The notes under the pieces were generated by a model. It was given only the letters and a program-made list of their open reading frames with translations. It was not told where the DNA came from and did no database searches. Position numbers and translations under genes: made by a program. Positions 3,407 to 38,581 of a stretch of 39,912 nucleotides of DNA are shown here, piece by piece. Origin of the DNA: a virus; the IMG/VR virus record IMGVR_UViG_3300045988_081371, positions 1 through 39,912 of that record; one strand, given 5' to 3'. Position 1 is the first letter of the stretch; each line of letters starts with the position of its first letter.

Positions 3407-4644
3407 ACGCAAAAGCCGGGCGCGAAGCCATATGAGGTTCTTGGATAGCTGTTGCCGGAAGCGCCGGTAGTATTTACAATCATGAAAATAGCGGAATTGC
3501 TGGCATACGGGGAACGGAGCCACCAAATAGCGTTTGCACTTGTCAAGTTGTGTTTGTGGTTAATCTTGTTGTTTCCGGCGCTGTAATACGAATACTGCGC
3601 CTGTTTGCGGGCTTCGTTGCTGTTTGCGCTACCGGTAGACCCGAATACTTCGTATTGCGATAACAGGAAAAAGTAATCTGTGGTTGCCGTCACCGCGCTT
3701 GCGTCGCTGCTGAAGCCTGTGTTGTTTGTGTACTTCGTCACGGATTTCAGCACCGCGCGGAGCGCTGCCGGGATGACCGCAATGATCGTGCCGGAATAGT
3801 TTGATAGGCTTGTGCCGCAAATTGCCGTTCGCATATTTGATGATGCCCAGCCACCGGAATTCGTGTTACTGGTATTCATGCAGAATCCGTCGCCGGCATT
3901 GTTGTAATAGTTGTCGCATAGCGCAACGGATATGCCGTTGGACAGCGCCGTTTTGCCCAACTGGAAATGAATGCGGTTTGCGCCCTCGACGCTTGCGTTA
4001 TGGTTAAACCCGATAATGAACGCATACATCGTGAAGTTGGATAACGTCAGTGCCCCAACCGTGCCGTTCAGCGTGACCGCCTTGCAGTCGCCAATGCTCC
4101 AATAGTTCTCGCCCTGTCCCGCGTCGGAAACGGACTTGATGACGCTCCATTCGTTATTGTTGAGCGTAGAGCTCACGAAAGAGAGCGTCAGCGCGTAGGA
4201 GGTCGTGGAGGATACGACATTGACCGAGCCGCTCACGGTCTGCCCGTCCTTTGTCGCCTCGACGGTGTACGCCCCCGTCTCCGTGACGGTGAAAACCGCC
4301 GTCCCGTTGCTCGTCTTTGTGGCGATAGTCGTCGAGCCTTTTTTCAGCGTAACGGATGCGCCGGAATCAACCGTTACCGTGATCGTCGCGTTAAAGAACG
4401 ACAGGGACACGGCGTAGCTGTCTTTTACGGACACGCTTTGCGTGTTGGAGGTCTTCCCATTCAGTGTTGCAGATACACTCCATGTACCCGCCTCCGGCAG
4501 TTTCAGAACGCAAGAGCCGCTCGCCGCCGTGCCGTTTACCGTTTTTGAGCCATTTGTCGCCGTGACCGCCGCACCGCTCGTAACGGATACCACAAGGGAT
4601 CGTTCGACGCCGGGCTTGCTGACTGCGTTTGTTCTACCAATCAT
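3403..4644 (-). CDS. Receptor-binding/tail fibre protein (413 aa): two N-terminal Ig-like beta repeats plus a C-terminal domain ending in a WWLRSP motif
   Basis: Repeated TVT/SVS-rich beta segments. The C-terminal part has GGWASSNMR, YFFLLSQYEVFG and IWWLRSP, which I recall from DUF6273-type domains of gut Firmicutes. Position is directly after the fibre gene. Confidence 0.6.
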   Translation of the reverse strand: MIGRTNAVSKPGVERSLVVSVTSGAAVTATNGSKTVNGTAASGSCVLKLPEAGTWSVSATLNGKTSNTQSVSVKDSYAVSLSFFNATITVTVDSGASVTLKKGSTTIATKTSNGTAVFTVTETGAYTVEATKDGQTVSGSVNVVSSTTSYALTLSFVSSTLNNNEWSVIKSVSDAGQGENYWSIGDCKAVTLNGTVGALTLSNFTMYAFIIGFNHNASVEGANRIHFQLGKTALSNGISVALCDNYYNNAGDGFCMNTSNTNSGGWASSNMRTAICGTSLSNYSGTIIAVIPAALRAVLKSVTKYTNNTGFSSDASAVTATTDYFFLLSQYEVFGSTGSANSNEARKQAQYSYYSAGNNKINHKHNLTSANAIWWLRSPYASNSAIFMIVNTTGASGNSYPRTSYGFAPGFCV

Positions 4645-4646
4645 TT

Positions 4647-6062
4647 TCAGCTCACCACCTTAATACAAGTAATGCTCTGCACCGTGATAGCCGCCGTCGG
4701 CTTTGTCGCGGCGTAGATTTTGACCGTACCACTGCCGGACAGCGCGACGGGTGCGTAGATGCCGGATGCGGCTTCCGTTGCCCCGAACGCAACCTCCGGC
4801 ACATGGCTTGCGGTCACGCCCGTCAGCGCCAGTGTCGCCGCGTACGGGTATGCTGCATACGTGCTGTCGCTGCTCCACGCGGACGCTGCAACGCTGACAT
4901 TCTGGAAAATAAGCGCCTGCGCATACCCGCTGTGTGAATGGCTGGCAGCGGCGAAATCTCCCGGCTTTTTGCCGCTGTCTTTCTGCTTGCCGGTCGTGCC
5001 GTCGAACGCGACGAGGTTGCCGGAAACCGGGGACGAAACCTTTTCGACGTACCCGCTGTGTGAATGGCTGGCAGCGGCAAAGTCGCCAGGCTTTTTCCCG
5101 GAGTCGGTGAGGTTGCCGTTTGCATCGAGTCCGGCGAAGTGCCCCGCCGTGGCACTCTTTACCTTGTCCGCCTTGTCGCTTGCGGCGGCGGTGATCTCTT
5201 CAAGGGCGCTGTCCTTGGCCGCGTCCACGTCTGCCACGGCGGCTGCCGCTGCAGCTGCGGCAGCGTCGGCGACGGCCTTGGACTGTGCCGCCCCTGCGTC
5301 GTTTACGGCTTTTGCCTGCGCCTTGCCCGCGTCCTCCACGGCCTGCTTTTGGGTGCTTCCCGCCGCGTTGATGGCTTCCAGCTGCGCCGCGCCTGCTGAC
5401 TCTAGTGATTCCTTGGATCCCACCGTCACCTTGTCAACGATTTCCTGCTTGTTCGATTCGGTAAAGTAGTCAACTCCAACTACCGGAGTCTTTCCGTCAG
5501 CGCCGCTGGATGGCTTTCCGGTATCTTTTCCGTCAATGTACCAGTTTCCATTTTTGCCAATTTCTGGCGTTGAACCGTCGAAATCTCCGTTTGCAGCCGC
5601 CTGTTCAAGCGTATTCTTTGCGTTAGTAGCAGCCGTTGCCGCATTATTCGCTGCGGTCGCAGCGCTGTTTGCAGATTCTGCAGCTGCCGTTACCTGCTGT
5701 AATAGCTGCGGCGTTGGCGCTGCAGAAGCGTCGCCATTCGGTGTTCCGTTCTGCACGATATTCCATCCGGTTTCAGACTTTGCCGTCGTCATGACCTTTT
5801 CTTCACCAACAAAGCCTGTAACCGACAAAATAAGTGACCCGGTTGACGCTAGACACTCCCACGGGACGGTAAGCGTGTTTCCAAAGGTATGTAGCACTTG
5901 CTTTGCAACTTCGCCGTTTGTGAACACACAAACAATGGAGGTCATTTCTTTCCATTCTTCGTCCATGTCCAAAATCAGCGTATCAACGTTCACGCCGTTT
6001 TGAATAACTGTAACCGGTGATTTCACATAGATTTTCCGTTGCCTGACCGTTGCATAAAGCAT
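4647..6062 (-). CDS. Tail fibre protein (471 aa) with an Ala-rich coiled region and duplicated SHSHSGY motif
   Basis: GNWYIDGKDTGKPSSGADG motif, a long AAAAAAA/coiled stretch, two copies of DSGKKPGDFAAASHSHSGY, and SD GGAGGAA. Confidence 0.7.
   Translation of the reverse strand: MLYATVRQRKIYVKSPVTVIQNGVNVDTLILDMDEEWKEMTSIVCVFTNGEVAKQVLHTFGNTLTVPWECLASTGSLILSVTGFVGEEKVMTTAKSETGWNIVQNGTPNGDASAAPTPQLLQQVTAAAESANSAATAANNAATAATNAKNTLEQAAANGDFDGSTPEIGKNGNWYIDGKDTGKPSSGADGKTPVVGVDYFTESNKQEIVDKVTVGSKESLESAGAAQLEAINAAGSTQKQAVEDAGKAQAKAVNDAGAAQSKAVADAAAAAAAAAVADVDAAKDSALEEITAAASDKADKVKSATAGHFAGLDANGNLTDSGKKPGDFAAASHSHSGYVEKVSSPVSGNLVAFDGTTGKQKDSGKKPGDFAAASHSHSGYAQALIFQNVSVAASAWSSDSTYAAYPYAATLALTGVTASHVPEVAFGATEAASGIYAPVALSGSGTVKIYAATKPTAAITVQSITCIKVVS
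4925..5105. repeat. Intragenic direct repeat (two 55-nt copies, 126-nt period) inside the fibre gene
   Basis: acccgctgtgtgaatggctggcagcggc...ggcttttt at 4925-4979 and 5051-5105, with a few mismatches. It encodes GKKPGDFAAASHSHSGY twice. Confidence 0.8.
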
Positions 6063-6071
6063 AAGTTCCTC

Positions 6072-9000
6072 CTATCTAGCCCATTTCCAAGGACTGTTTT
6101 TCTCTGAATAGATGCAGCAGAACCATGCATCTTTTTCTTTGTCGCTCAAGTCTTTGCTGTCAATAAAAGCAATCACTTTGTCTTGCGTGGATTTTCCCTT
6201 GATCTTCTTGCCGTTCTCGTCCATCTCCGTTTTAGCATCGTCCGAATTTTTGAATTGAAGCAAGTCTAACACATCTCCCGCCGTAACTCCGTTCGATTTT
6301 CCATATTCAGTCCACCGGTCTACCGTTTCGGTCGGAAGCGAAGCAACTACAGTTGCTTCATTTACCTTTTTATTGTCGTACAGACTGTTAAGCTTGTCAT
6401 ATTTTCCGCCATCCATCCCGCTCATAAGCGATTCTGCGGCTTTTTCGACAAACAAATCTGCACGTTCACGCTGTGTCATATTCTTTGCTTCATTCATCCA
6501 CTGTGTTGTAATTTCTTTTCCATATTTTTCTTCGGCGATTGCTTCATAATACTTTTCCGCAATTTCGTTTGCCGTGTTCATGATATCCTTTGAAACGCCG
6601 GTGTAGGTTGGGTTCGCAAGCGATTTTCTCATGGATTCCAGCGCAGTTTGATCCGCCAGCTTTGTGCCAGATGCAGAAACCGCTTTCAGCGTAAAATAAT
6701 CTGCACGTTCTTTATCAGATTTGAGCTTTTCTGCCTCTTTTACCCATTCTGTTTCAATCTCGTACCCTAATTCTCGCTTTGCCAGCGCTTCTTCATACTG
6801 ATCTGCGTACGTTTTTGCCTTTTCGCTCACATCCGCAGGAAGTGATGCATACTTTGCTGACGAAAACATATCGTCTGACGCGCCGCTGGTCAATCCACCT
6901 ACGCTGTCAATAGCTTTTCCAAGAATCTCCTTTGCAATTTCATCGTCGCTTTTTCCGGCTAAATCAGTAATCCACTTGTCAGACGCAGAATATCCTACGC
7001 CAGCTGCTTCTTTGCCGATTTCGTTTGCATATTGCTGAGAAAGCTCCATTGCTTTAGACTTGATGCTGTCAGGCACTGATTTGTAAACATCACTGTTGAG
7101 CATCGTCTTTCGAATACTGTAATCAGTCTGTCCGCGAATTTCTGTGTATTTATCATACTGACCGGATGTGAGCTTTACATTTTCGCCGTCAACCGAAATC
7201 AACTTTTTGGGCTTCGTGTAAAAATTAGAGAAATCGGAATTTACGGAATGCAGTCTGGCAATTTCTTCTTCTACCGGGTCTGTTTTGGTTCTCGACGGAT
7301 ATACTGGCGTAACAGCCTTGAAAGCAGAATTTGCTATACCGCCAGCACCGTTCCCATCAACAGGTACGCCCCAGTTTCCGCGCGTAATTGCCATATCCTC
7401 ACGCCAACCTGGCACTTTCCGCTGCACGCCCTGAATGGCAGACTGCACAGGAGACCATGCGCCGTCCGGCTCAATGTAGGTGCTTCTCTGATTTTTATCT
7501 ACGCTAGACGCGATACGTCCAACAAGCGTCGGCACATATTGTCCAATATAGTTCCCCAAAATCTGAACACCCATTTTTGCCGCCAATTCACCATTTTTTT
7601 CATCATTTCTGGAATTTTGAATTGTCGAAATAACGCTGTCCAAGCCGGAAAGCATAGACTGTTCAAAGACGGGATCTGTGATCTTGCTCAGTGCATCCAT
7701 AATGTCGTTCAGCGAAATCGGTTCATCTCCGTTTCTCGCATTCTGCGCCGATTCCCAAATCTGCGCGCCTGTCAAGAGTCCTGTCCCGGTAAGCGTTAAA
7801 CTGTCGATCGGAACATATGTATCACCGATTAAGATCGAAAAATCCTTTGCACCAAACGCATTTTTTTGCTGCTCTTTCTCTTCATCATCACCTACGCCAG
7901 TCGCGCGAAGAATGCCTTGTTTTGCCATTGCAGCACCAATTCCAAGTAGAATTGTTCCGGTTGTTGCCGCCGCAAAATCATCAATTGTCTGTGCAACTGT
8001 GATATCTGTGTTCCCGCGCTGCATCTGAACAATGTCATACAGCCCCTTGACATAGCCAAGCGGTGAATATTCCACCGTCCGCACCATAACGTTTGCAGGA
8101 ACTTTTTTAAACGGATAAATAACCCCAGAAAGGAATCTCCCAATTTTGCTGTTATTCCCAAACCGTGTTGCCCACTTGGAAACGGTGTTCAGATCATTGT
8201 AAGTTCCTTTTTTTGCCTCGCTCATGGCATAGGTTCTGGCTTCGTCTGTGATTTCGGTCAAATGATTTGCTTTCATGTAGCTGGCCAATGACACAGTATA
8301 CATCGGCTTGCTGAACCACATATCTTCTGCTTCAAGGGCTTTGCTGTTAAGATCGTTCAGTTTTTCAGCCTTGGCAAGGAATTGATCAACGCCGCGCGCT
8401 AAAGCATTCTGCGGGTCGTTGATCTTCCAGTACCGCCGATAATCGTTAACGCCACCTGTAGATGTGCTGTATTTCCCAACGCTATCCTCATACAGGTCAA
8501 CAGCCGTATCGTAGTCTGCCCGTGCAGCATTCAAAAGGCTTCTATCCGCTTTCCTTAGTGGATTCAAAAAAGCCGTTGTTCGTCCCTCGTTGTTTCCGAT
8601 AACAATCATTTCGCCTAGCGCTTTCAAATTATCTTTTCCAATTTTTGCGATCGCGCCGCTGACGTTGCCCATTATATTCTTCAAATGCGTAGACGGATTT
8701 GCCAGCATGGAAAAATAGCGCCACTGCTGTAACCCCTCTCGAAGCGTGGCCGGAATCTGCTCTGCAACATTTCGATAGATGTTGTCCAGCGCCGCTTTCT
8801 GCGCGCTTTCCGTCTCTGCGTTTTGATAGGCATCCAAGAGGTTGTCCGGGACATTGAGTTCTTTCGGCTTCTTAAGGTTCTTGTTTACCTGCGCTTCCAG
8901 ATTTGATATCATCCGCTGAATCGTAAAGATTCTGCCCTCCGGAGTCATGGATTTCAAGAGCCGCGCTGCCTGCACAGATTGACCGGCGTTTGTTTCTACC

Positions 9001-20953: not shown

Positions 20954-22345
20954 CTATGCGCTGAAATTCATATAGCTGCTGTCGATTTCTCCGCCGGTCA
21001 TATAATCATCGTATTGCTCAAGATCGGCTTCCACATTGACCGTCTCTTCTATTTTCTCTGGTTTAAGCGTCCGAAGCTGACAATAATACCGAAGCGCGTC
21101 TGGCCGGTGTGTAATCTCATGCGGCTGTTTCGCACAGTCAGACGGGTTTTTATCGTCGTGCTGAATTGCCATGATATCATCAATCAAGCCCTTGCACGTC
21201 TCAAAAATAACCATTCCGGGCTTTCCGTCTGGCAGCAACTTGAAAAACTCTTTTACGGAAAGCCAGCCCTGCACGCGGCTATTGTTTGCTTTCAGCACCG
21301 GCAATCCAGCCTCCGAGAACAGCGCAGCCATTGTTTTACCGGTGTCTTTCTGCGTTGACCACATATCAGGCGGTGCTACCGTATACTCTATCCGTTCTCC
21401 TGCTGGCGTAGATACAAGCGCCGCCCTCGCAGCCTCTGAAACGATGAGCTTGCTTTCGGAATATTCTCTGTAAACGTAACATCTTCCGTTGAAGTCAACT
21501 GCAATCCACAGGCAGGCAAACATATCAAGGCCATAGTCAAACGTCCTATATTTCGCCCACGAATCCGGGATTGCAAACGGCTTTACAACGTGCGTTTTTA
21601 TTGTGAACTCTGGGAAATAACCGCCAGATAGTGCATCCCAATCACCATATCTGTGAGCCTGCCGAATATCTTCCGGCAGTAGGTCTAGCGCATTGATATA
21701 ATCCGGTGACCCCTCCAACAAGTCCTTGTTGTCCTCGACTGTGGCCTTGATAAACAGATAATCATCCGGGTTTTCATTTGGCAGGAAGTCTCTTGTAATA
21801 AAGATTCTCTTTACCCACTGATGCCCGATGCCGCCCGGGTTGCAGGTCAGATATACTCTCTTTGGAAACGGCGTCGCGCCGCGGCAGCAGCCCGCGATAC
21901 CACGAAATTCCTGCTCCGTAAATTGTGTTGCCTCTTCAATAAAAATCCAGTCGTATTCCTGACCTTGGTATTTACCTGTAACAGCTGCGCCATATCCGTC
22001 CATATTGCCGAATTTTATCGTGCTGCCGTTAGCAAATGTCAGAAGATGCTTTTGTACGTTATACGCCGCAAGGCTTTCTGGCACAAGCTTCAAAATCGGG
22101 TCTATAACAGAGTTTTCCAAGTCCTCATACCTGCGGCGAAGAATCAAAATCCGGATTCCCGGATATTCTATCGCCCCTCCTACAGGCTTTCTCTGAGTAC
22201 ACCAGCTTTTCCCTCCGCCGCGCGCTCCACCGTAACAGGTATATTTCACTCGGCTTGCAAAAAACTGATTCTGAGGCTCGGAGTTTGGCCGTCCAAGGTC
22301 AACCGTTATTGTTCCGCCTTTCTTTGGCGGCTTCACTCTCGCCAT
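20954..22345 (-). CDS. terL: Terminase large subunit (463 aa)
   Basis: Walker A-like CYGGARGGGKSW, Walker B-like DWIFIEEATQF, and a C-terminal RNaseH-like nuclease region (FDYGLDMFACLW). Confidence 0.9.
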   Translation of the reverse strand: MARVKPPKKGGTITVDLGRPNSEPQNQFFASRVKYTCYGGARGGGKSWCTQRKPVGGAIEYPGIRILILRRRYEDLENSVIDPILKLVPESLAAYNVQKHLLTFANGSTIKFGNMDGYGAAVTGKYQGQEYDWIFIEEATQFTEQEFRGIAGCCRGATPFPKRVYLTCNPGGIGHQWVKRIFITRDFLPNENPDDYLFIKATVEDNKDLLEGSPDYINALDLLPEDIRQAHRYGDWDALSGGYFPEFTIKTHVVKPFAIPDSWAKYRTFDYGLDMFACLWIAVDFNGRCYVYREYSESKLIVSEAARAALVSTPAGERIEYTVAPPDMWSTQKDTGKTMAALFSEAGLPVLKANNSRVQGWLSVKEFFKLLPDGKPGMVIFETCKGLIDDIMAIQHDDKNPSDCAKQPHEITHRPDALRYYCQLRTLKPEKIEETVNVEADLEQYDDYMTGGEIDSSYMNFSA

Positions 22346-22510
22346 AGCAAGCCCTTTCTGCGTATTCTCGCCTTGCCGCTTAGATTGTCACATTCTGATC
22401 TGCGGCGCATCCACGCTTTGACGCGATCAGAATAGTTTTCAGCGACCGTTGTCATTTCCATGTGAGGCCAAGCGATGCGCTCTCACAGTGCCCGGGCGCG
22501 ACCCGGATTC

Positions 22511-22597
22511 TGGCGGCAGATGGAGGTGTCGAGCCCCACGGCTTGCGCCGCTCACTGTTTTCAAGACAGGATTCAAGGCCGCTTGAATTCATCTGCC
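22511..22597 (-). tRNA. tRNA-Ser(UGA)-like, 87 nt, type II with long variable arm, degenerate T-arm
   Basis: Revcomp is GGCAGAT..ATTC/GAAT D-arm..anticodon loop CTTGAAA..variable stem GCGGC/GCCGT..T-loop CTCGACA..ATCTGCC-G-CCA. There is one mismatch in the anticodon stem and a weak T-stem. Confidence 0.6.
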
Positions 22598-22600
22598 ATA

Positions 22601-22694
22601 TGGCGAAGATGGCAGGACTCGAACCTGCACAGCGCCGTATGGCGCTTACTAGCGGTTTAGCAAACCGCTGCCTTACCGTTAGGCTTACATCTCC
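22601..22694 (-). tRNA. tRNA-Ser(GCU), 94 nt, type II
   Basis: Revcomp is GGAGATG...GCGGT-TTGCTAA-ACCGC (anticodon GCT), variable stem AGCGCC/GGCGCT, T-arm GCAGG-TTCGAGT-CCTGC, CATCTTC-G-CCA. Confidence 0.85.
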
Positions 22695-22697
22695 GTA

Positions 22698-22773
22698 TGG
22701 TGGGTCGTTTCGGATTCGAACCGAAATAATACCAGTCATGAGCTGGTTGCTCTAGCCGTTGAGATAACGACCC
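22698..22773 (-). tRNA. tRNA with CAU anticodon (elongator Met or Ile2-type), 76 nt
   Basis: Revcomp is GGGTCGT..ACCAG-CTCATGA-CTGGT..TTCGG-TTCGAAT-CCGAA-ACGACCC-A-CCA. It has a G1-C72 pair and no GGG/CCC anticodon stem, so it is not initiator-like. Confidence 0.85.
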
Positions 22774-23289: not shown

Positions 23290-23688
23290 CTATTTGAACG
23301 CATCTTTTGCCCCGCCAAAGCTCACTTGCAGCTTAATTTCACCGCTGGCCTGCTGCTCCACCTTATCTGTATAGGCAGATCCAAAGCCGAAATCTTGCTT
23401 ATGCAGAAATATTGATTTGCCGGTGCCGGGGCCATTATAACGAGGATCAATATCGTATTCGGCCTTGATCCAAGTATCAATGTTTTTTAGCAGTGCCGCC
23501 GTGGCTTTATTATGGGGATTCGGCATCTTAACGAATTGCCGCACATCATCAATGCTTACACCGATAAAGCGATAAAAATCAGCGTGTGACGCTCTGTAAT
23601 CTTTGCCTGTGCCGTGCTCCTGCTTGTACTGATCAAACAAATCAAAAACTTGCTGATATGTAAGCGGGAACTGCCGAACATTTGCCAT
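23290..23688 (-). CDS. terS: Terminase small subunit (132 aa)
   Basis: Size, an N-terminal HTH-like segment and the C-terminal GKSIFLHKQDFGFG motif resemble small terminases of Firmicutes phages (from memory). SD GGAGGAGGTG. First gene of the late region. Confidence 0.6.
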   Translation of the reverse strand: MANVRQFPLTYQQVFDLFDQYKQEHGTGKDYRASHADFYRFIGVSIDDVRQFVKMPNPHNKATAALLKNIDTWIKAEYDIDPRYNGPGTGKSIFLHKQDFGFGSAYTDKVEQQASGEIKLQVSFGGAKDAFK

Positions 23689-23974
23689 TTAAGCACCTCC
23701 TCCGGCAAAAAAGTTTGTGGAAAATCCTTTTACAGGTGAGATTTGCAACGGCAAACAGCAAGCGCAAGCGCTTGCTTTTGCCTTATGCAAATCTCTACAA
23801 GGTAAATATATCACGCCGAACTTATATTTTGATGGAAAAAGTGCGAAAACCTGCGAAAATATAAGTTCAAAATAGGCATTTTGCATATGCAAAAGTTGTT
23901 GATTTGCAACGGTTGCAATGCTGTTCACAAATTGTTTACTGAATTTTTACAAATGCCTATTGACAAGATTAAGA

Positions 23975-24031
23975 GTGCAAAAAAGGATTCCCGCAGATAT
24001 GGCAACGGCTGCCACGTCTGCGGGAATCCTT
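23975..24031 (-). terminator. Rho-independent terminator after the RHH gene
   Basis: 15-bp arms AAGGATTCCCGCAGA (23983-23997) and TCTGCGGGAATCCTT (24017-24031), followed on the minus strand by TTTTTTGCAC. Confidence 0.65.
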
Positions 24032-24084: not shown

Positions 24085-24264
24085 TTAATGCTCTCCGTCC
24101 ATTCGTGCGCGAATGGATTGATTGATATAAGCGTTGACGGACTGTCCAGCCCTGGCGGCCGCCTGCGCTATTTGCTCTTTGTCTCCCTTTGGTACTAGCA
24201 AATTGATTCGATCATAAGCTTTTGCAATATAATCATTTTGCCACTTTGCTTTTCGATTTGCCAT
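24085..24264 (-). CDS. Ribbon-helix-helix (Arc/CopG-like) DNA-binding protein (59 aa)
   Basis: MANRKAKWQNDYIAKAYDRINLLVPKGDKEQIAQAAARAGQSVNAYINQSIRARM shows the beta-strand plus two-helix pattern of Arc/CopG family proteins. SD AGGGGTGA. Confidence 0.6.
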   Translation of the reverse strand: MANRKAKWQNDYIAKAYDRINLLVPKGDKEQIAQAAARAGQSVNAYINQSIRARMDGEH

Positions 24265-24281
24265 AAAATCACCCCTGCGAC

Positions 24282-24388
24282 ATGATATCACGCGCAGAAA
24301 CGTTGCGCAACGTACAAAATCCACAAAAACACGTTGCGCAATTTGTTTATTCTGCCGCCTTGACTACGTTGCGCAACGACGCTATGAT
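24282..24388. promoter_or_regulatory. Divergent promoter/operator region: three CGTTGCGCAA(CG) operators and two sigma-70-like promoters
   Basis: Operators lie at 24301-24312, 24332-24341 and 24367-24378. The plus promoter is TTGACT (24360-24365), 17 nt, TATGAT (24383-24388), with operator 3 inside the spacer. The minus promoter is TTGCGC (revcomp of 24305-24310), 17 nt, TATCAT (revcomp of 24282-24287), overlapping operator 1. Confidence 0.65.
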
Positions 24389-24448
24389 TAAGGCACAAAA
24401 GCACAACACCGCAGGCCAACAGCCGCGGCACGCATGGAGGAACACACT

Positions 24449-24946
24449 ATGAAATACTTCACCAACATTACCACGCTGGACGAACTCAAGAAAGAATACC
24501 GCCGCCTCGCTTTTGCAAACCACCCCGACCGGGGCGGCGACGTTGCCACGATGCAGGCCATCAACGCCGAGTACGAGCAGCTGCATGAGCTGCTTAAAAA
24601 TCAGCACAACGCAGGCGCTGACGAATACCACCAGACCACCGAGACCGCCGCCGAATTTATCCATATCATTTCCGCACTTATCCGCTTGGGCGGGCTGGAA
24701 ATTGAGCTTTGCGGCTCTTGGCTTTGGATCGGCGGTAACACCCGCGAGCACAAAGAGGCTTTAAAGGCCGCTGGCTGCCGCTGGAGCAACGGAAAGAAGC
24801 TGTGGTACTGGCACCATGAAGAGGCTGGCCGCAAATGGCGCAAGGGTAACACCACAATGCAGGAAATCCGCCGGAAATATGGATCACAGGTTTATACCGC
24901 TTCTGGCGAATCCAGCAAATACGAAAAGATCGGGGCAACGGCGTAA
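24449..24946 (+). CDS. J-domain (DnaJ-like) protein (165 aa) with an uncharacterised W/K-rich C-terminal domain
   Basis: N-terminus LDELKKEYRRLAFANHPDRGGDVATMQAINAEYEQL carries the HPD tripeptide in J-domain helix II/III context. SD GGAGGAA. The C-terminus reads LCGSWLWIGGNTREHKEALKAAGCRWSNGKKLWYW. Confidence 0.8.
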   Translation: MKYFTNITTLDELKKEYRRLAFANHPDRGGDVATMQAINAEYEQLHELLKNQHNAGADEYHQTTETAAEFIHIISALIRLGGLEIELCGSWLWIGGNTREHKEALKAAGCRWSNGKKLWYWHHEEAGRKWRKGNTTMQEIRRKYGSQVYTASGESSKYEKIGATA

Positions 24947-24980
24947 GCCGTTCCCCCTCACAATGAAAGGAGTGCACATC

Positions 24981-25160
24981 ATGGCAAAAAACTTTAAGCT
25001 TGCAGACATCGACCGCAACGCGCTTTACACGGTATCCATCATTGACAGCTGGATTGACGACGCAAAGCAGCAGTTAATGACCGGTTCTGACTTGATCAGC
25101 TTTACAAATGCCGCTGCGCATCTGTACGACATCCACGCCGAAAGGGTGGACGCAGAATGA
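24981..25160 (+). CDS. Hypothetical protein (59 aa)
   Basis: SD AAAGGAG lies 9 nt upstream of ATG 24981. Begins MAKNFKLADIDRNALYTVSIIDSW. Confidence 0.55.
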   Translation: MAKNFKLADIDRNALYTVSIIDSWIDDAKQQLMTGSDLISFTNAAAHLYDIHAERVDAE

Positions 25161-25609
25161 GCTATCACAACCTTTTGCAGCAGTACGGCCACGAACAGCC
25201 GCAGGCAGAAACCCGCGTTTATATTTTTGCGCAAGCTCCCGCGAAGCTCTCCACGCCGTCAGAGGTGGCGTACAGAGACGCAGAAGCGGCGCGTATGATT
25301 AAGCGGCTGGAATCACTTGTTGACGATCTAAAGGACTATAGGCAGGCACTGGCGGCGCGATACGCGGAACTTGAAACGTTGCCGTATTGTTACGCCCTTA
25401 AGCTTGAGCGCGTCCCACACTGGAAAGGACATATTGAGTATATCATCACCATCAAAAAGACGCTTAGCGACGGCACAGGAACCGAGGAGCTGCGCGAGGT
25501 TTACCCCGGCAAAGAGCGCCGTGCAGCTTTTGCCCGATATGATGAGCTTAAACGCCAGCGTCCCGGCATTCCGGCAGAAATGGATATTGCAAAGCGCCCT
25601 TGGGAATAA
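25157..25609 (+). CDS. Hypothetical protein (150 aa)
   Basis: ATGA overlap with the preceding ORF. No motif recognised. Confidence 0.6.
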   Translation: MSYHNLLQQYGHEQPQAETRVYIFAQAPAKLSTPSEVAYRDAEAARMIKRLESLVDDLKDYRQALAARYAELETLPYCYALKLERVPHWKGHIEYIITIKKTLSDGTGTEELREVYPGKERRAAFARYDELKRQRPGIPAEMDIAKRPWE

Positions 25610-25644
25610 ACAACAGCACCCGGAAAAAGCCGGGTGCTGTTGTT
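25609..25644. terminator. Bidirectional terminator hairpin between convergent units
   Basis: Perfect 15-bp arms AACAACAGCACCCGG / CCGGGTGCTGTTGTT with loop AAAAAG, flanked by T-rich sequence on both strands. Confidence 0.75.
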
Positions 25645-28828: not shown

Positions 28829-29328
28829 GCCTTGCCTCCTTCCTTCGGCGCTTCCGGCAGCGGCATCCAGTGGGTAACTACGCAGTCTACCGGATTGTTG
28901 TATACATCATCGGGATTAAACTGCCGGTTCTCCCACCATCCCTCCGGGATGTAGTAATCATCCGCCTCCTCGTCGTACAGGCCATAGCAGTAGATGTCGC
29001 TCCAGTTCCACGCACTGTCCTGCGTCAGCATCTTCCCGTCCTCGTAGATAGCCGGTATCACGAAAATGTATCCGTTTCGATTGCAAACGGCCAAAACATC
29101 TGTCTCGGGCTCCGGCAGCCGCTCCGCCACCGGAATCCACCTCTGTTTCTCCCGCAGCACCACATTCTCGGCGGTCAGGCGCTCGATGAGGTCAGCAGCT
29201 TCCGACATCACTGCCGTCAAGCAATATTCACCCTCCGATCTGCTTGCTGGGCAATTTTCACAGTCCCCGCCATCGTCTGGGTCCATGACGCACGTCCGCA
29301 GCGCCTGTACGATTTCCTTTTCCGTCAT
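28825..29328 (-). CDS. DUF551-like protein (167 aa)
   Basis: The C-terminal half WIPVAERLPEPETDVLAV...VVTHWMPLPEAP matches the DUF551 pattern as I remember it. ATGA overlap with the radical-SAM stop. Confidence 0.6.
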   Translation of the reverse strand: MTEKEIVQALRTCVMDPDDGGDCENCPASRSEGEYCLTAVMSEAADLIERLTAENVVLREKQRWIPVAERLPEPETDVLAVCNRNGYIFVIPAIYEDGKMLTQDSAWNWSDIYCYGLYDEEADDYYIPEGWWENRQFNPDDVYNNPVDCVVTHWMPLPEAPKEGGKA

Positions 29329-30194
29329 GTCGTCTCCCTCCAAAATTCGTTGAACTTCTTTCCTGTAATAATCGGGCGGCACCATTCGCGCTGGAATCGC
29401 CTCCACTCCGGATCGTACTTTCCATCCTCGTCCCGAAACAGCATGGCATACGGCACAAATCCTGCCTGCATGGTCTGCATCAAGCGCGTTTCTGCATCCT
29501 CAAAGCTATCTCCGTCGTAGCCGCACAGCACATAGCAGCACATGGTGTGGCTTGCCGGTCGAAATCCTGCCAATCGCAGTTTCTTGCCCATATCCACCAG
29601 CGGTTCCAGATCGTCACGAGTGTCATATGCCGTGTATAGCCTCGCCGGTTTTACTTCATGCAAAAGATCCGCCTGCCACTGTTGAAGCAGTGCCGGCTCT
29701 AATCCACCCGTAAAAACCGGTCTGTGTGGTTGTCTCTTGAGCATCTCACAGACTGCCCGAAAATGCGCTTCTGACGTTCCAAGAATGTTATCATCAAGGA
29801 TGTTCCAACCGTCCACAATCGGAAGCTCCTGAATTACGCCATGTGCGCAGCGCGGAACAGAGCAGAACCAGCATTCTTTCGTGCAACCGCGAGAAGTGAA
29901 GATCATGCCATCTCTCAGATACATTCCCGGCACAAAATCGCCCATGCGGTCATCGAACGCTGGGCCGCCGACCTCTACCGGTACACCGAGAATCTGCCAT
30001 GCGTCGTACAGCTCCTCCGCACGTTCCAAATCCCATGTAAAGGTCACGGAAATATGCACCGCCTCAACGCCTGCTTTGATGCAGTCTGCAATGTTCTCGA
30101 TCGTCGGCTCTCTGAAGAACGCCAGAGCATCAGTCGGCGAAGCGTTTGTCTTTCGCGGAAAAACACGGGCAATCGTGGTTTGTTCTAAGTCCAT
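29325..30194 (-). CDS. Radical SAM enzyme (289 aa) with a short N-terminal Rossmann-like (B12-binding-domain-like) region
   Basis: CxxxCxxC in FTSRGCTKECWFCSVP, a GGE-like VFTGGLEPALL about 55 residues later, and a further Cys cluster MCCYVLCGYDG. Start at MDLEQTT behind GAGGA. Confidence 0.75.
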   Translation of the reverse strand: MDLEQTTIARVFPRKTNASPTDALAFFREPTIENIADCIKAGVEAVHISVTFTWDLERAEELYDAWQILGVPVEVGGPAFDDRMGDFVPGMYLRDGMIFTSRGCTKECWFCSVPRCAHGVIQELPIVDGWNILDDNILGTSEAHFRAVCEMLKRQPHRPVFTGGLEPALLQQWQADLLHEVKPARLYTAYDTRDDLEPLVDMGKKLRLAGFRPASHTMCCYVLCGYDGDSFEDAETRLMQTMQAGFVPYAMLFRDEDGKYDPEWRRFQREWCRPIITGKKFNEFWRETT

Positions 30195-30237
30195 TGCCGT
30201 CCTCACTCCCGCAGCGCCTTTACAATTTCCTCACTTG

Positions 30238-36299: not shown

Positions 36300-36875
36300 A
36301 TGAAACGTATTATACCGATTTTTGCAGCTCTGCTTTTAATTTTATCTCTGTCTGGTTGTGGTTACTCTGCAAAAGATCTTTCCAACGCGAAAGACACAGC
36401 GTATTCTGCTGGATACAGCGAAGCAGAGATCGCGCACAAGCTTGACTACGAAAACGGCTATGCTGCTGCGGAAGAGGAACACAAAGCTGATTATGATAAT
36501 GGATATAGAGACGGATATAGCGTTGGATATGAAGATGCGCTATCTGACAAAGAAAGTGTAGCTTCTCAGTACTATGATACAGGATACAATATTGGATACA
36601 GCGCCGGTGTCAGCGCCTCAAAAGGAGATAGTGCAGTAGATTCCGCTGCGCCGTCCGAACCATCCGTTTATGCTCCGGAAAATACATCCACTGCTGCAAG
36701 CTCCTCTAGCGCATCTCAAACCAGCTACATAGCAAATACTAGCACATATAAATTTCACAAGCCGTCTTGTTCCTCTGTAAAGCAGATGAAAGAATCAAAT
36801 AAATGGTACTACACTGGATCAAGGGATGATCTGATATCGAAAGGCTACGATCCATGCGGGCGCTGCCACCCTTAA
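36300..36875 (+). CDS. Lipoprotein (191 aa) with GY-repeat region and a C-terminal Cys4 domain; superinfection-exclusion candidate
   Basis: Signal peptide plus lipobox LSLSGC, repeats of the DYxNGY / GYSxGY type, and C-terminus YKFHKPSCSSVKQM...GYDPCGRCHP. Confidence 0.7.
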   Translation: MKRIIPIFAALLLILSLSGCGYSAKDLSNAKDTAYSAGYSEAEIAHKLDYENGYAAAEEEHKADYDNGYRDGYSVGYEDALSDKESVASQYYDTGYNIGYSAGVSASKGDSAVDSAAPSEPSVYAPENTSTAASSSSASQTSYIANTSTYKFHKPSCSSVKQMKESNKWYYTGSRDDLISKGYDPCGRCHP

Positions 36876-37064: not shown

Positions 37065-37553
37065 ATGAAGAATGCTCTTGTCGAAGCGTGCCGAAAAGCA
37101 AAGAACAGCGCAGACCCGAAAGTAACGAATCAAGATGTTTGTAATGCGACCGGACTTAGCGAGACAGCAGTAAACAATTTCTTGCGCGGGAGTACAAAAG
37201 ATCCTCCATTGGGCACTGCGGTTGCGATTGCAAAATATTTGGGCGTGTCCGTAGATTTGGCCTGCGGAATCAAAACAGACTCCATTGACGCAAAATTATA
37301 TACGGAGTTGCAGCGTACACAAGATGAGCTAGACGCAAAGAATCGCGATCTAACTGCGGCGCAGGAAAAGCTGGCATATCAGGAGCGCGCCTTGCGAATG
37401 CACCGCATCGTGACAATGATCCTGCTTGCGCTGCTGGCGATTGTAGTGATTGCGCTAATTGCCGATCTGATCAATCCAACTGTCGGCTGGATACGGCGAG
37501 CGCGCGGCTATCTTAGCGGCTTCCTGACAGCTTGGAAAGGAGGTGTCCTATGA
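37065..37553 (+). CDS. Membrane-anchored XRE-type HTH protein (162 aa): HTH, coiled coil, C-terminal TM helix
   Basis: TNQDVCNATGLSETAVNNFLRGSTKDPPLGTAVAIAKYLGVSVDL forms the HTH, ELQRTQDELDAKNRDLTAAQEKLAYQERAL the coiled coil, and IVTMILLALLAIVVIALIADLI the TM helix. ATGA overlap with int. Confidence 0.7.
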   Translation: MKNALVEACRKAKNSADPKVTNQDVCNATGLSETAVNNFLRGSTKDPPLGTAVAIAKYLGVSVDLACGIKTDSIDAKLYTELQRTQDELDAKNRDLTAAQEKLAYQERALRMHRIVTMILLALLAIVVIALIADLINPTVGWIRRARGYLSGFLTAWKGGVL

Positions 37554-38581
37554 AAGTACCAGAGCCGCGCAAACTGAGCAGCGGGACATGGTTCATACAA
37601 CTGCGCCTCTCCGGCCAGAGCATCCCTGTGTCTGCGCTTACGCGCAAGGACTGCATCCGGCAGGCCGAGATGATCAAGGCACAGCACCGTACCGGGAAAA
37701 TGGAGCAAAAATACAAGACGGACAAAACTGTGCGCGAGCTGATGGCCGACTACATCGAGAGTATCCGCGCAACGGCCTCGCCGTCGACGATACGCGGCTA
37801 TATCACGATCCGGGACAATCGCTTCCAGTCCGTCGCAAACAAGTCGGCGGACAGGATAAAAAACTGGCAGCGTGTGATCGACGCCGAGGCCGACCTCACA
37901 TCTGCCAAAACTTTAAAAAACGCCTGGGGCTTTTTGCGGACGGCCATGCGCCACGCGGGCATGACGCCGCCGGACGTGCGCCTCCCGCAGCTGGTGCCGC
38001 CTGACAAACTATGGTTGGAGCCGGACGACATCCTCCGCTTTGTAAAGCTCCTGCACGGCCAGCCTTGCGAGATCCCGGCGCTGCTGGCTCTGCACGGCCT
38101 GCGGCGCTCAGAGATCTTTGCGATGACCTACGGCAAAATCGATTTGCGCGCGCGGACGATTACGGTGCATGGTGCTGCCGTTATGGATGAGCATGATAAG
38201 CTCATCCAAAAACCGACCAACAAAAACGCCTCTTCTCGGCGCGTCGTCCCGATTATGATACCCACTCTTGTGGATGCCCTCCGCGCCGCTCCCGCGCATG
38301 GCCCTGACGATCTTATCTATACGGCCAACGCAAACACGCTCTATAATCAGATCAACCGCCTTTGTCGGGATAACGATCTGCCGGAGGTTGGCGTACACGG
38401 TTTGCGACATAGCTTTGCATCGCTGGCGTATCATCTCGGTCTGACGGAGCAGGAGACAATGGAGTTGGGCGGCTGGTCGGACTACAATACCATGCGCAAG
38501 ATCTATACACACCTCGCGGCGGCTGATCGCCTTAAGGGTCACAACAAACTTGCGGCGTTTTTTGATGATAATGCTAAATGA
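37550..38581 (+). CDS. int: Tyrosine recombinase/integrase (343 aa)
   Basis: C-terminal catalytic region LHGLRRSE...VHGLRHSFASLAYHLG...GGWSDYNTMRKIYTHL (R, HxxR, Y). Start MKVPEPRK behind AAAGGAGGTG. Confidence 0.95.
   Translation: MKVPEPRKLSSGTWFIQLRLSGQSIPVSALTRKDCIRQAEMIKAQHRTGKMEQKYKTDKTVRELMADYIESIRATASPSTIRGYITIRDNRFQSVANKSADRIKNWQRVIDAEADLTSAKTLKNAWGFLRTAMRHAGMTPPDVRLPQLVPPDKLWLEPDDILRFVKLLHGQPCEIPALLALHGLRRSEIFAMTYGKIDLRARTITVHGAAVMDEHDKLIQKPTNKNASSRRVVPIMIPTLVDALRAAPAHGPDDLIYTANANTLYNQINRLCRDNDLPEVGVHGLRHSFASLAYHLGLTEQETMELGGWSDYNTMRKIYTHLAAADRLKGHNKLAAFFDDNAK

Follow-up and report, generated by a model that had tools for sequence, protein, structure and literature searches.

The window, as the whole stretch of 39,912 nucleotides analysed here is called (IMG/VR virus record IMGVR_UViG_3300045988_081371, positions 1 to 39,912), is a temperate tailed-phage genome of ~40 kb that carries a self-contained cassette of four genes. 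The cassette consists of a gene for a ribbon-helix-helix (RHH) protein and, diverging from it, an operon that encodes a J-domain protein followed by two further proteins, termed orfB and orfC. Its J-domain protein is of class C and of a kind carried by mobile elements, set here in an accessory, RHH-gated unit together with an orphan partner; no unusual mechanism is demonstrated. The family defined by this J domain together with its attached C-terminal domain (the C domain) is already annotated but functionally blank, and it spans temperate gut phages, large lytic phages and conjugative plasmids. An earlier note, drawn from the letters of this DNA, had described the cassette as a repressor-controlled J-protein operon; the sequence features that it claimed were all found, either where it had placed them or a few bases off.

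The J-domain signature reported in the earlier note is real. Taken singly, the window protein matches the Pfam DnaJ family (PF00226) at E 3.3e-5 (24.3 bits) and phrog_15863 at E 2.6e-48, and the evidence from its family is decisive in identifying it as a class C (type III) J-domain protein. H25-P26-D27 and the canonical KxxYRRLA...HPDxGG residues are invariant in an alignment of 31 homologues, and the HPD is present in 141 of the 144 homologues encoded at J loci, which comprise the window and 143 collected loci (8 from encoding contigs, 55 from species genomes and 80 from IMG/VR). The loci in species genomes come mostly from metagenome-assembled genomes of Oscillospiraceae, with distant ones in Bacteroidota and Chloroflexota. 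A profile of 31 J homologues retrieves solved J domains from the PDB at E values ranging to 1e-4, the best being SV40 large T antigen (2.8e-6), with DNAJA1 and others at ~1e-5 and DnaJ at 3.7e-5, and 96 of 150 diverse family members match Pfam DnaJ directly, at best with E 1.2e-13. The AlphaFold2 (AF2) model of the window protein (pLDDT 87, pTM 0.82) places the J domain at about residues 1-57 and forms the hairpin of helix II (10-24), HPD loop (25-27) and helix III (32-56). Foldseek superposes this model on Tim14 at a root mean square deviation of 0.8 A over 40 columns and matches it to the Euglena J-domain subunit NDUEG6 with a probability of 0.99, confirming the J fold. The start of the gene is supported by all public homologues, which begin with MKYF and share the same start and length.

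Behind the J domain lies a family-specific, beta-rich domain of ~100 residues (about residues 60-157). This C domain had been described as impossible to assign and is indeed hard to place: Foldseek of the J model against the PDB matched the J domain only, leaving the C domain with no solved relative, and besides DnaJ the sole Pfam family with matches in more than one of the 150 members is DUF5710 (PF18974). DUF5710 is matched weakly by 14 of the 150 (E up to 0.01, best 1e-4), and by the C domain of the window protein at E 0.1, with 12.8 bits against a gathering score of 26.5. The likeness centres on the conserved motif G-(N/D)-T-x-x-H-K-x-x-L-K-x-x-G-C-x-W-S-x-K-K-x-W-Y-W, which reads TREHKEALKAAGCRWSNGKKLWYW in the window protein, and is best regarded as a lead and not as family membership. 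We take the DUF5710 motif to be one that also occurs at the N-termini of plasmid primases. Stand-alone C domains without a J domain exist (P0383, 91 aa; P0267, 93 aa), which indicates that the C domain has a function of its own. In one related locus (L115), a 269-aa open reading frame (ORF) downstream of orfC (5375-6184, plus strand) also bears the C-domain motif, as FFGGDTVSHKDDIKSLGYRW, so that a further protein of this neighbourhood, one without a J domain, shares the DUF5710-like element.

The regulatory anatomy of the cassette (Table 1) is compact. The promoter of the J operon, P_J, is present with a palindrome in its spacer, as had been claimed, and is the top promoter-like site between 23000 and 27000. 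Promoter-like sites as such occur in this interval at chance level (5 found against 5.2 expected), and the support for P_J comes instead from relatives, in which TTGACx-17-TATxAT is kept. The palindrome occupies three sites, O1 to O3, the two further copies upstream of P_J having also been predicted, one of them over the -35 element of the RHH gene. The exact 10-mer core CGTTGCGCAA is confined to the operator copies within the window, but when one mismatch is allowed it is found 11 times against 6.6 expected, which is not above chance; the signal thus lies in clustering and exactness, not in copy number. A putative promoter for the RHH gene can be read from the sequence, with its -35 hexamer inside O1. 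It was not called by the promoter scan because its -35 matches the consensus at only 3 of 6 positions, and an analogous arrangement is present in locus L007.

Both ends of the cassette are closed by hairpins, and the terminator insulation that had been proposed is confirmed by folding (the range 25609-24644 in the earlier note is a typing error). The hairpin at 23983-24031 folds as RNA at -40.7 kcal/mol (z -8.1) and has a U6 tail on the minus strand only, by which it terminates the RHH transcript. The hairpin between the convergent orfC and 83-aa helix-turn-helix (HTH) genes reaches ~-30 kcal/mol on either strand (z -6.3 and -6.2). With its own promoter and flanking terminators, the cassette is a transcriptionally insulated unit of 1.6 kb. 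A search of the cassette region against Rfam gave no family at threshold, the sub-threshold matches being driven by the terminators.

Table 1. Coordinates of the cassette, its regulatory elements and reference genes in the window
Feature	Position	Strand	Remarks
RHH gene, 59 aa	24085-24264	minus	transcribed alone
J gene, 165 aa	24449-24946	plus	GGAGG ribosome-binding site at 24437
orfB, 59 aa	24981-25160	plus	
orfC, 150 aa	25157-25609	plus	start overlaps orfB stop in ATGA
Promoter P_J, TTGACT-17-TATGAT	24360-24388	plus	10/12 consensus matches; hexamers conserved in relatives
Operator O1, ACGTTGCGCAACG	24300-24312		perfect palindrome; overlaps -35 of RHH promoter
Operator O2, ACGTTGCGCAATT	24331-24343		imperfect copy; 31 bp from O1, 35 bp from O3
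Operator O3, ACGTTGCGCAACG	24366-24378		perfect copy; fills P_J spacer
Putative RHH promoter	24282-24310	minus	extended -10 TGaTATCAT 24290->24282; 17-nt spacer; -35 TTGCGC 24310->24305 inside O1; read from sequence
Intrinsic terminator of RHH gene	23976-24031	minus	22-bp-arm hairpin 24031->23983, then TTTTTT; inverted repeat and fold
Bidirectional terminator hairpin	25609-25644	both	15-bp perfect stem between convergent orfC and 83-aa HTH gene
HTH gene, 83 aa	25643-25894	minus	
TerL	20954-22345	minus	
CI-like HTH gene, 162-aa repressor	37065-37553	plus	
Integrase	37532-38581	plus	

The divergent 59-aa protein is an Arc/CopG-like RHH protein, as had been suggested. It matches phrog_13890, a PHROG without annotated function, at E 3e-22. 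As a single sequence it stays below threshold in Pfam (HicB, 18.9 against 21; Arc, 16.8 against 20.4; NikA also), whereas a profile of 11 RHH homologues run against the PDB finds P22 Arc as the best match (E 0.003), followed by TacA, CopG, VapB26, ParG and omega, nearly all the remaining matches being RHH proteins as well. By iterated search, an RHH homologue adjoins J in 85 of the 144 loci, either divergently or as the first gene of the same operon. The divergent clade shares one design, in which TTGACx and TATxAT enclose a palindrome within a 17-nt spacer and one to three extra copies lie toward the RHH gene, so that the layout of an autoregulated switch, recognised earlier in the window, is conserved in relatives.

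At least 10 lineages keep this palindrome-in-spacer promoter with upstream copies, and the sequence of the palindrome differs by lineage. Lineage-specific palindromes hold the spacer position in L007, L082, L064-68, L066, L102, L109, L033, L024 and L031. Where the window has ACGTTGCGCAACG, L007 and L082 have (A)TGAGTTAACTCA, L064, L065, L067 and L068 have ATAACCGTTAAC, L066 has ATATGCGTTACAAC, L102 has ACGTTGCAACGT, L109 has GTCATGGAAATGAC and L033 has CACGATATCGTG. The N-terminal, beta-strand part of the RHH protein varies together with the operator sequence across these lineages; L007, whose operator is ATGAGTTAACTCAT, and L082 agree in the operator core GAGTTAACTC as well as in the N-terminus of the RHH protein. 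This covariation is good but indirect evidence, the strongest of a computational kind, that the RHH protein binds these sites. In L115, the region upstream of a co-linear RHH-J-orfC operon (3515-3590) is occupied by an array of ATAGCTAT-type palindromes, about five in number and spaced by ~14-16 nt.

The combination of an RHH protein with a potentially harmful partner raises the question of a toxin-antitoxin-like addiction module, with the RHH protein as antitoxin and J as a toxin acting through DnaK. In ~30 relatives the RHH gene sits immediately before J and in the same orientation, which is the usual antitoxin-toxin order, and toxicity of a J protein is documented for Rki of phage RB43. However, the RHH protein of only 59 aa is a bare DNA-binding fold without the C-terminal toxin-binding extension of type II RHH antitoxins, and in the window its gene is divergent and monocistronic with its own terminator, and thus is not co-transcribed with J. 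A hairpin also separates RHH from J in L115 (AAGGG...CCCTT), one that many loci also have at -74/-55 relative to the J start, and no PADLOC or toxin-antitoxin family match goes beyond generic RHH similarity. The arguments from divergent, separate transcription apply to the window and not to the ~30 relatives in which the RHH gene lies upstream in the J orientation. We rate such a module as highly improbable.

A closer parallel is the immI region of P22 (mnt/arc/ant). Like immI, the cassette is a small self-contained unit outside the main immunity region (which in the window occupies 35-38.6 kb), with an Arc-class RHH protein whose closest solved relative is Arc itself, divergent promoters, an operator inside a promoter (here within the spacer) and predicted transient expression, and the two configurations seen in relatives, with RHH divergent or first in the operon, recall Mnt and Arc, respectively. 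This resemblance allows for a second immunity region in which J, together with orfC, would be a DnaK-powered antirepressor of a CI-type repressor gated by an Arc/Mnt-type RHH protein. However, the cassette has only one RHH gene and its cargo is a J protein and orfC in place of an Ant-type antirepressor: comparison with Pfam and PHROG linked none of J, orfB and orfC to the ANT, Bro-N, KilA-C or P22_AR antirepressor families. Moreover, the J family is abundant in lytic phages and in plasmids without a CI repressor. Architecture being what speaks for it, an antirepressor function is very unlikely.

Among relatives the cassette comes and goes. It is found in 32 of 62 related phage loci that are anchored on TerL, the large terminase subunit, and have enough upstream sequence, and several close relatives with TerL 79-81% identical have no J cassette, which makes it an accessory element and not part of the phage core. 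In L001 and L002 it lies at the prophage edge beside host genes or the integrase, and variable small genes occur within and after it; clustering of the cargo ORFs between and after J and orfC was too noisy in this GC-rich DNA to give more than that variability. A DNA-level search of the cassette against GenBank phages gave no match. The best match in the genome collection, with J 74% identical (L009, CAVGWF010000052.1), is labelled Escherichia coli and originates in a metagenome 'cleanbin'; mis-binning of the contig is probable, all other close matches being Oscillospiraceae.

Several of these properties are those of a moron: an own promoter and terminators, an orientation against the flanking phage genes, a place between core modules, presence in some close relatives and absence from others, the prophage-edge location and the variable small genes. 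The cassette might on these grounds be a lysogen-expressed unit of lysogenic conversion, superinfection exclusion or abortive infection that benefits the host, in which the RHH protein merely sets the level. The operators argue otherwise, since one in the spacer and two more sites predict strong repression whenever RHH is made. In addition, none of the four proteins (RHH, J, orfB, orfC) matches a defence model of PADLOC-DB v2 at E up to 1, the same J family is found among early genes of strictly lytic large phages and on plasmids, and expression of a J protein is toxic in the one tested case (Rki). A role as a lysogen-expressed moron is unlikely.

The other two proteins of the operon had been described as lacking any recognisable motif, and neither has a match in Pfam, PHROG, NCBIfam or PADLOC. 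orfB, present in 5-6 of ~143 loci, is variable cargo. orfC is far more widespread: 103 of 143 loci have it downstream of J in the same orientation, with 0-1.5 kb of variable genes between; J is upstream in all 29 IMG/VR loci retrieved through orfC. None of its 343 homologues is annotated, and searches of plasmids and of GenBank phages found no orfC. The AF2 model of orfC is very confident (pLDDT 93.6) and shows a helix of 41 residues (34-74) that leads into a small beta-beta-beta-alpha-beta domain. A profile of orfC against PDB sequences gives nothing under E 0.75, Foldseek of the model gives no PDB match under E 0.1, and in BFVD the sole relative is one uncharacterised protein. Of the structure comparisons that had been proposed, that of J thus returned a J fold and that of orfC no significant PDB neighbour. 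The likeness of orfC to Pur-alpha and RNase H-like proteins, which extends over ~50-80 residues at low TM scores, was set aside as a guide to function.

It is these hints, together with the J domain itself, that bear on the proposal of a replication or packaging helper, in which J would bring DnaK to a replisome or nucleoprotein complex (compare the disassembly of lambda O-P-DnaB, the activation of P1 RepA and the action of SV40 T antigen), and orfC would be a nucleic-acid-binding partner. The polyomavirus T antigen is a viral J-domain protein that directs host Hsp70 to specific complexes; SV40 large T antigen is the best solved match of the window J domain, and the HPD(K/R)GGD motif is common to both. 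However, T antigen is a eukaryotic example, the likeness is limited to ~55 residues and the rest is unrelated. The cassette is located between the replication/recombination module and the packaging genes, the J family adjoins ssb in E. faecalis plasmids, weak DUF5710 matches recur in the C domain, and the fold of orfC weakly resembles that of Pur-alpha (probability 0.9, TM 0.46, 55 columns) as well as those of RNase H-like nucleases, with E above 0.1 throughout. However, every structural hint for orfC is non-significant, the DUF5710 match of the window protein itself has E 0.1, the cassette has its own transcription, opposed in direction to the early and late operons, and half of the related phages, close ones included, do without it, so that it is not essential for replication or packaging. 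A helper function of this kind is improbable.

The account that we favour, with moderate confidence, is that of a tightly repressed accessory module of a temperate Oscillospiraceae-type phage which is expressed as a pulse on entry and redirects DnaK; its structural and regulatory part is much more secure than its physiological part. A monocistronic Arc-class RHH repressor would bind the three copies of the ACGTTGCGCAACG-type operator, so that binding at O1, over its own -35, would give autoregulation and binding at O3, in the P_J spacer, repression by occlusion of the promoter that drives J-orfB-orfC. As an incoming genome meets no RHH protein, P_J should fire as a short pulse until RHH accumulates, after which RHH would shut P_J and keep it off in the lysogen. 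The same entry-pulse logic is followed by P22 arc/ant and by zygotically induced leading-region genes of plasmids. During the pulse, the HPD loop and basic helix II of the J protein would dock on host DnaK-ATP and cause ATP hydrolysis, while the C-terminal domain would select the site or client. Tight repression in the lysogen would avoid DnaK-dependent toxicity of the Rki kind. orfC, which is almost never found without J in this phage group, would most likely be a lineage-specific client, adaptor or effector of J.

Several observations weigh against this account. Expression timing, DnaK binding and the phenotype of the cassette rest on inference, and an autoregulated repressor offers no obvious route of derepression upon induction, which leaves a role in the induced lytic cycle unexplained. 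The putative RHH promoter is weak on paper, with its poor -35 (3/6) and a very short leader. The window J protein scores under the Pfam DnaJ gathering score (24.3 against 27.8 bits), and HPD is replaced by HTD, HLD or HKD in a small number of family members (P0309, P0316 and three others). The idea of the three operon ORFs as a co-conserved trio does not hold, as orfB occurs in 5 and orfC in 103 of the 143 loci, and the closest relative of the window (J 91% identical; L007, L008) has RHH and J followed directly by the HTH gene, without orfB or orfC. The identities of J and of orfC to their window counterparts are uncorrelated (rho -0.02, n=103 loci) and variable genes are inserted between the two, which speaks against a tightly co-evolving physical pair; the pair is mosaic and does not diverge in close step. 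Finally, a TerL-anchored locus with TerL 79% identical (L189) has a 97-aa, N-terminally truncated orfC-like gene (4091-4599, minus strand) without J, and the absolute rule that orfC never occurs without J was accordingly rejected. The truncated gene in L189 is directly followed by an RHH-like gene of 75 aa.

The precedent named for the J protein, Rki, is indeed the only characterised phage J-domain protein (PMC13254874). Rki (ORF057w of the T4-like phage RB43) is expressed early and has a toxicity that depends on DnaK and on the J domain (PMC3486835). Like Rki, the window protein is a class C phage J protein that starts with the J domain and continues into an uncharacterised C-terminal domain, and it is expected to act via host DnaK; the toxicity of Rki needs both domains, and its gene is followed by an ORF of no assigned function, as J is by orfB and orfC. 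Unlike the window protein, Rki comes from a lytic phage and lacks a repressor of its own, and no homology between the two is detectable outside the J domain: a tblastn search against 50,697 phage records returned no RB43-type phage, and matches in T4-like Aeromonas phages cover only J-domain residues 9-47. A Firmicutes-type host does not use sigma-32/DnaK control in the same way, and the sigma-32 stabilisation mechanism of Rki is for that reason not transferable to it.

Phage-encoded J domains had been thought rare, an expectation that the present searches do not bear out for this family. A search with just the C domain returns at least 1,943 clusters at 50% identity (784 with E up to 1e-10), and most of the clusters are proteins of ~165 aa with J and C domains, along with some stand-alone C domains and some with N-terminal extensions of ~200 aa. 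Full-length J homologues are present in cultured lytic as well as temperate phages, including an Enterococcus phage, Fusobacterium phages (111-131 kb) and Cellulophaga phages of 145 kb. In large lytic phages they sit among small early genes, and in a podovirus contig (L144) an early operon that diverges from terS/terL begins with J. According to a 2026 review, a survey of 2020 counted J-protein genes in 137 phage genomes, nearly all of them without a second known domain (PMC13254874).

The family is also widespread on plasmids, being found in 2,740 PLSDB records, of which 2,216 are conjugative; the carriers include IncX3, IncX4 and IncI2-size E. coli plasmids (~60-65 kb) and plasmids of Enterococcus and Acinetobacter, and IncI2 mcr-1 plasmids have been reported with a dnaJ gene. 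The plasmid dnaJ of these groups (IncX3, IncX4, IncI2, Enterococcus, Acinetobacter) has the same two-domain architecture as the window J and is homologous over both domains, at 32-50% identity across query residues 9-146 (for Enterococcus, 1-165). Like the window J it travels on mobile elements, where it occupies accessory regions close to genes for transfer and establishment; unlike the window J, it is without orfC, and in two plasmid loci examined there is no adjacent RHH gene. In IncX3 and IncX4 the J gene heads a run of small uncharacterised genes between the replicon and the relaxosome genes. In E. faecalis ATCC 29212 plasmid 2 (L176, 952-6748) it accompanies DUF3850, ssb, thermonuclease, RelB/YafQ, DpnD/PcfM, AcrIIA9-family and PcfJ genes, which looks like an establishment or anti-defence cluster. 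Such neighbourhoods, with ssb and AcrIIA9, make an establishment role plausible. Literature searches found no function for plasmid 'dnaJ' and no J proteins in leading regions; the searchable papers label it only 'chaperone dnaJ', without functional data, and the main text of a leading-region anti-defence study has no mention of a plasmid J gene.

These neighbourhoods invite a broader proposal, speculative and rather unlikely, that J proteins with this C domain are general establishment factors of mobile elements. They would be produced in a pulse on entry, through escape from RHH in phages and through early or leading-region expression in plasmids, and would turn DnaK, as an unfoldase, on a specific target of the host or of a resident prophage (an immunity protein or a repressor, for example), with orfC as a lineage-specific adaptor or client. 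If so, DnaK hijacking would be a widespread and so far unrecognised entry strategy. A family that redirects DnaK during establishment would have a bearing on phage host range and on plasmid spread, and its plasmid carriers are clinically important, numbering thousands and including IncX3 (NDM-5) and IncX4/IncI2 (mcr-1) plasmids. With its dedicated RHH repressor, defined operators and orphan partner, the phage version makes the function of the whole family experimentally approachable.

In the window as a whole, nearly all genes outside the lysogeny module and the cassette are on the minus strand, including those for RecE/RecT, a primosomal protein, a RuvC-like resolvase and a MazG-like protein, followed by TerL, structural genes and the endolysin. 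Plus-strand ORFs at the left end of the window were rejected as spurious, as the minus-strand endolysin gene lies there, and the cassette operon therefore is, as had been claimed, the sole plus-strand unit besides the lysogeny module. The AT skew is positive solely across 24250-25600, its change of sign coinciding with the operon, which fits plus-strand coding. The neighbours of the cassette are the 83-aa HTH gene, the last early gene, on one side and a 132-aa gene (23290-23688, minus strand) on the other. The earlier label of terS for this 132-aa gene is unconfirmed, with no Pfam or PHROG match; its homologues occupy the same position in 83 related loci. Between it and TerL lie two tRNA genes, tRNA-Ser(GCT) and tRNA-Met(CAT) (22601-22773, minus strand), both overlapped by a probably spurious 95-aa ORF (22452-22739).

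Upstream of the 132-aa gene, the region 23700-23980 is AT-rich (GC 0.37-0.38) and dense in repeats. These include a palindrome with 28-nt arms (23738-23795), a 13-nt inverted repeat (23818/23856), TTTGC(A/C)TATGCAAA-type palindromes at 23777 and 23880, and GATTTGCAACGG at 23740 and 23901. Possible functions of the region are those of a late promoter, an activator site or a pac region. Elsewhere in the window, the early operon encodes a radical-SAM-like protein (29325-30206, minus strand), and the lysogeny module encodes a 191-aa protein with an Ada-type zinc-binding domain (36300-36875, plus strand).

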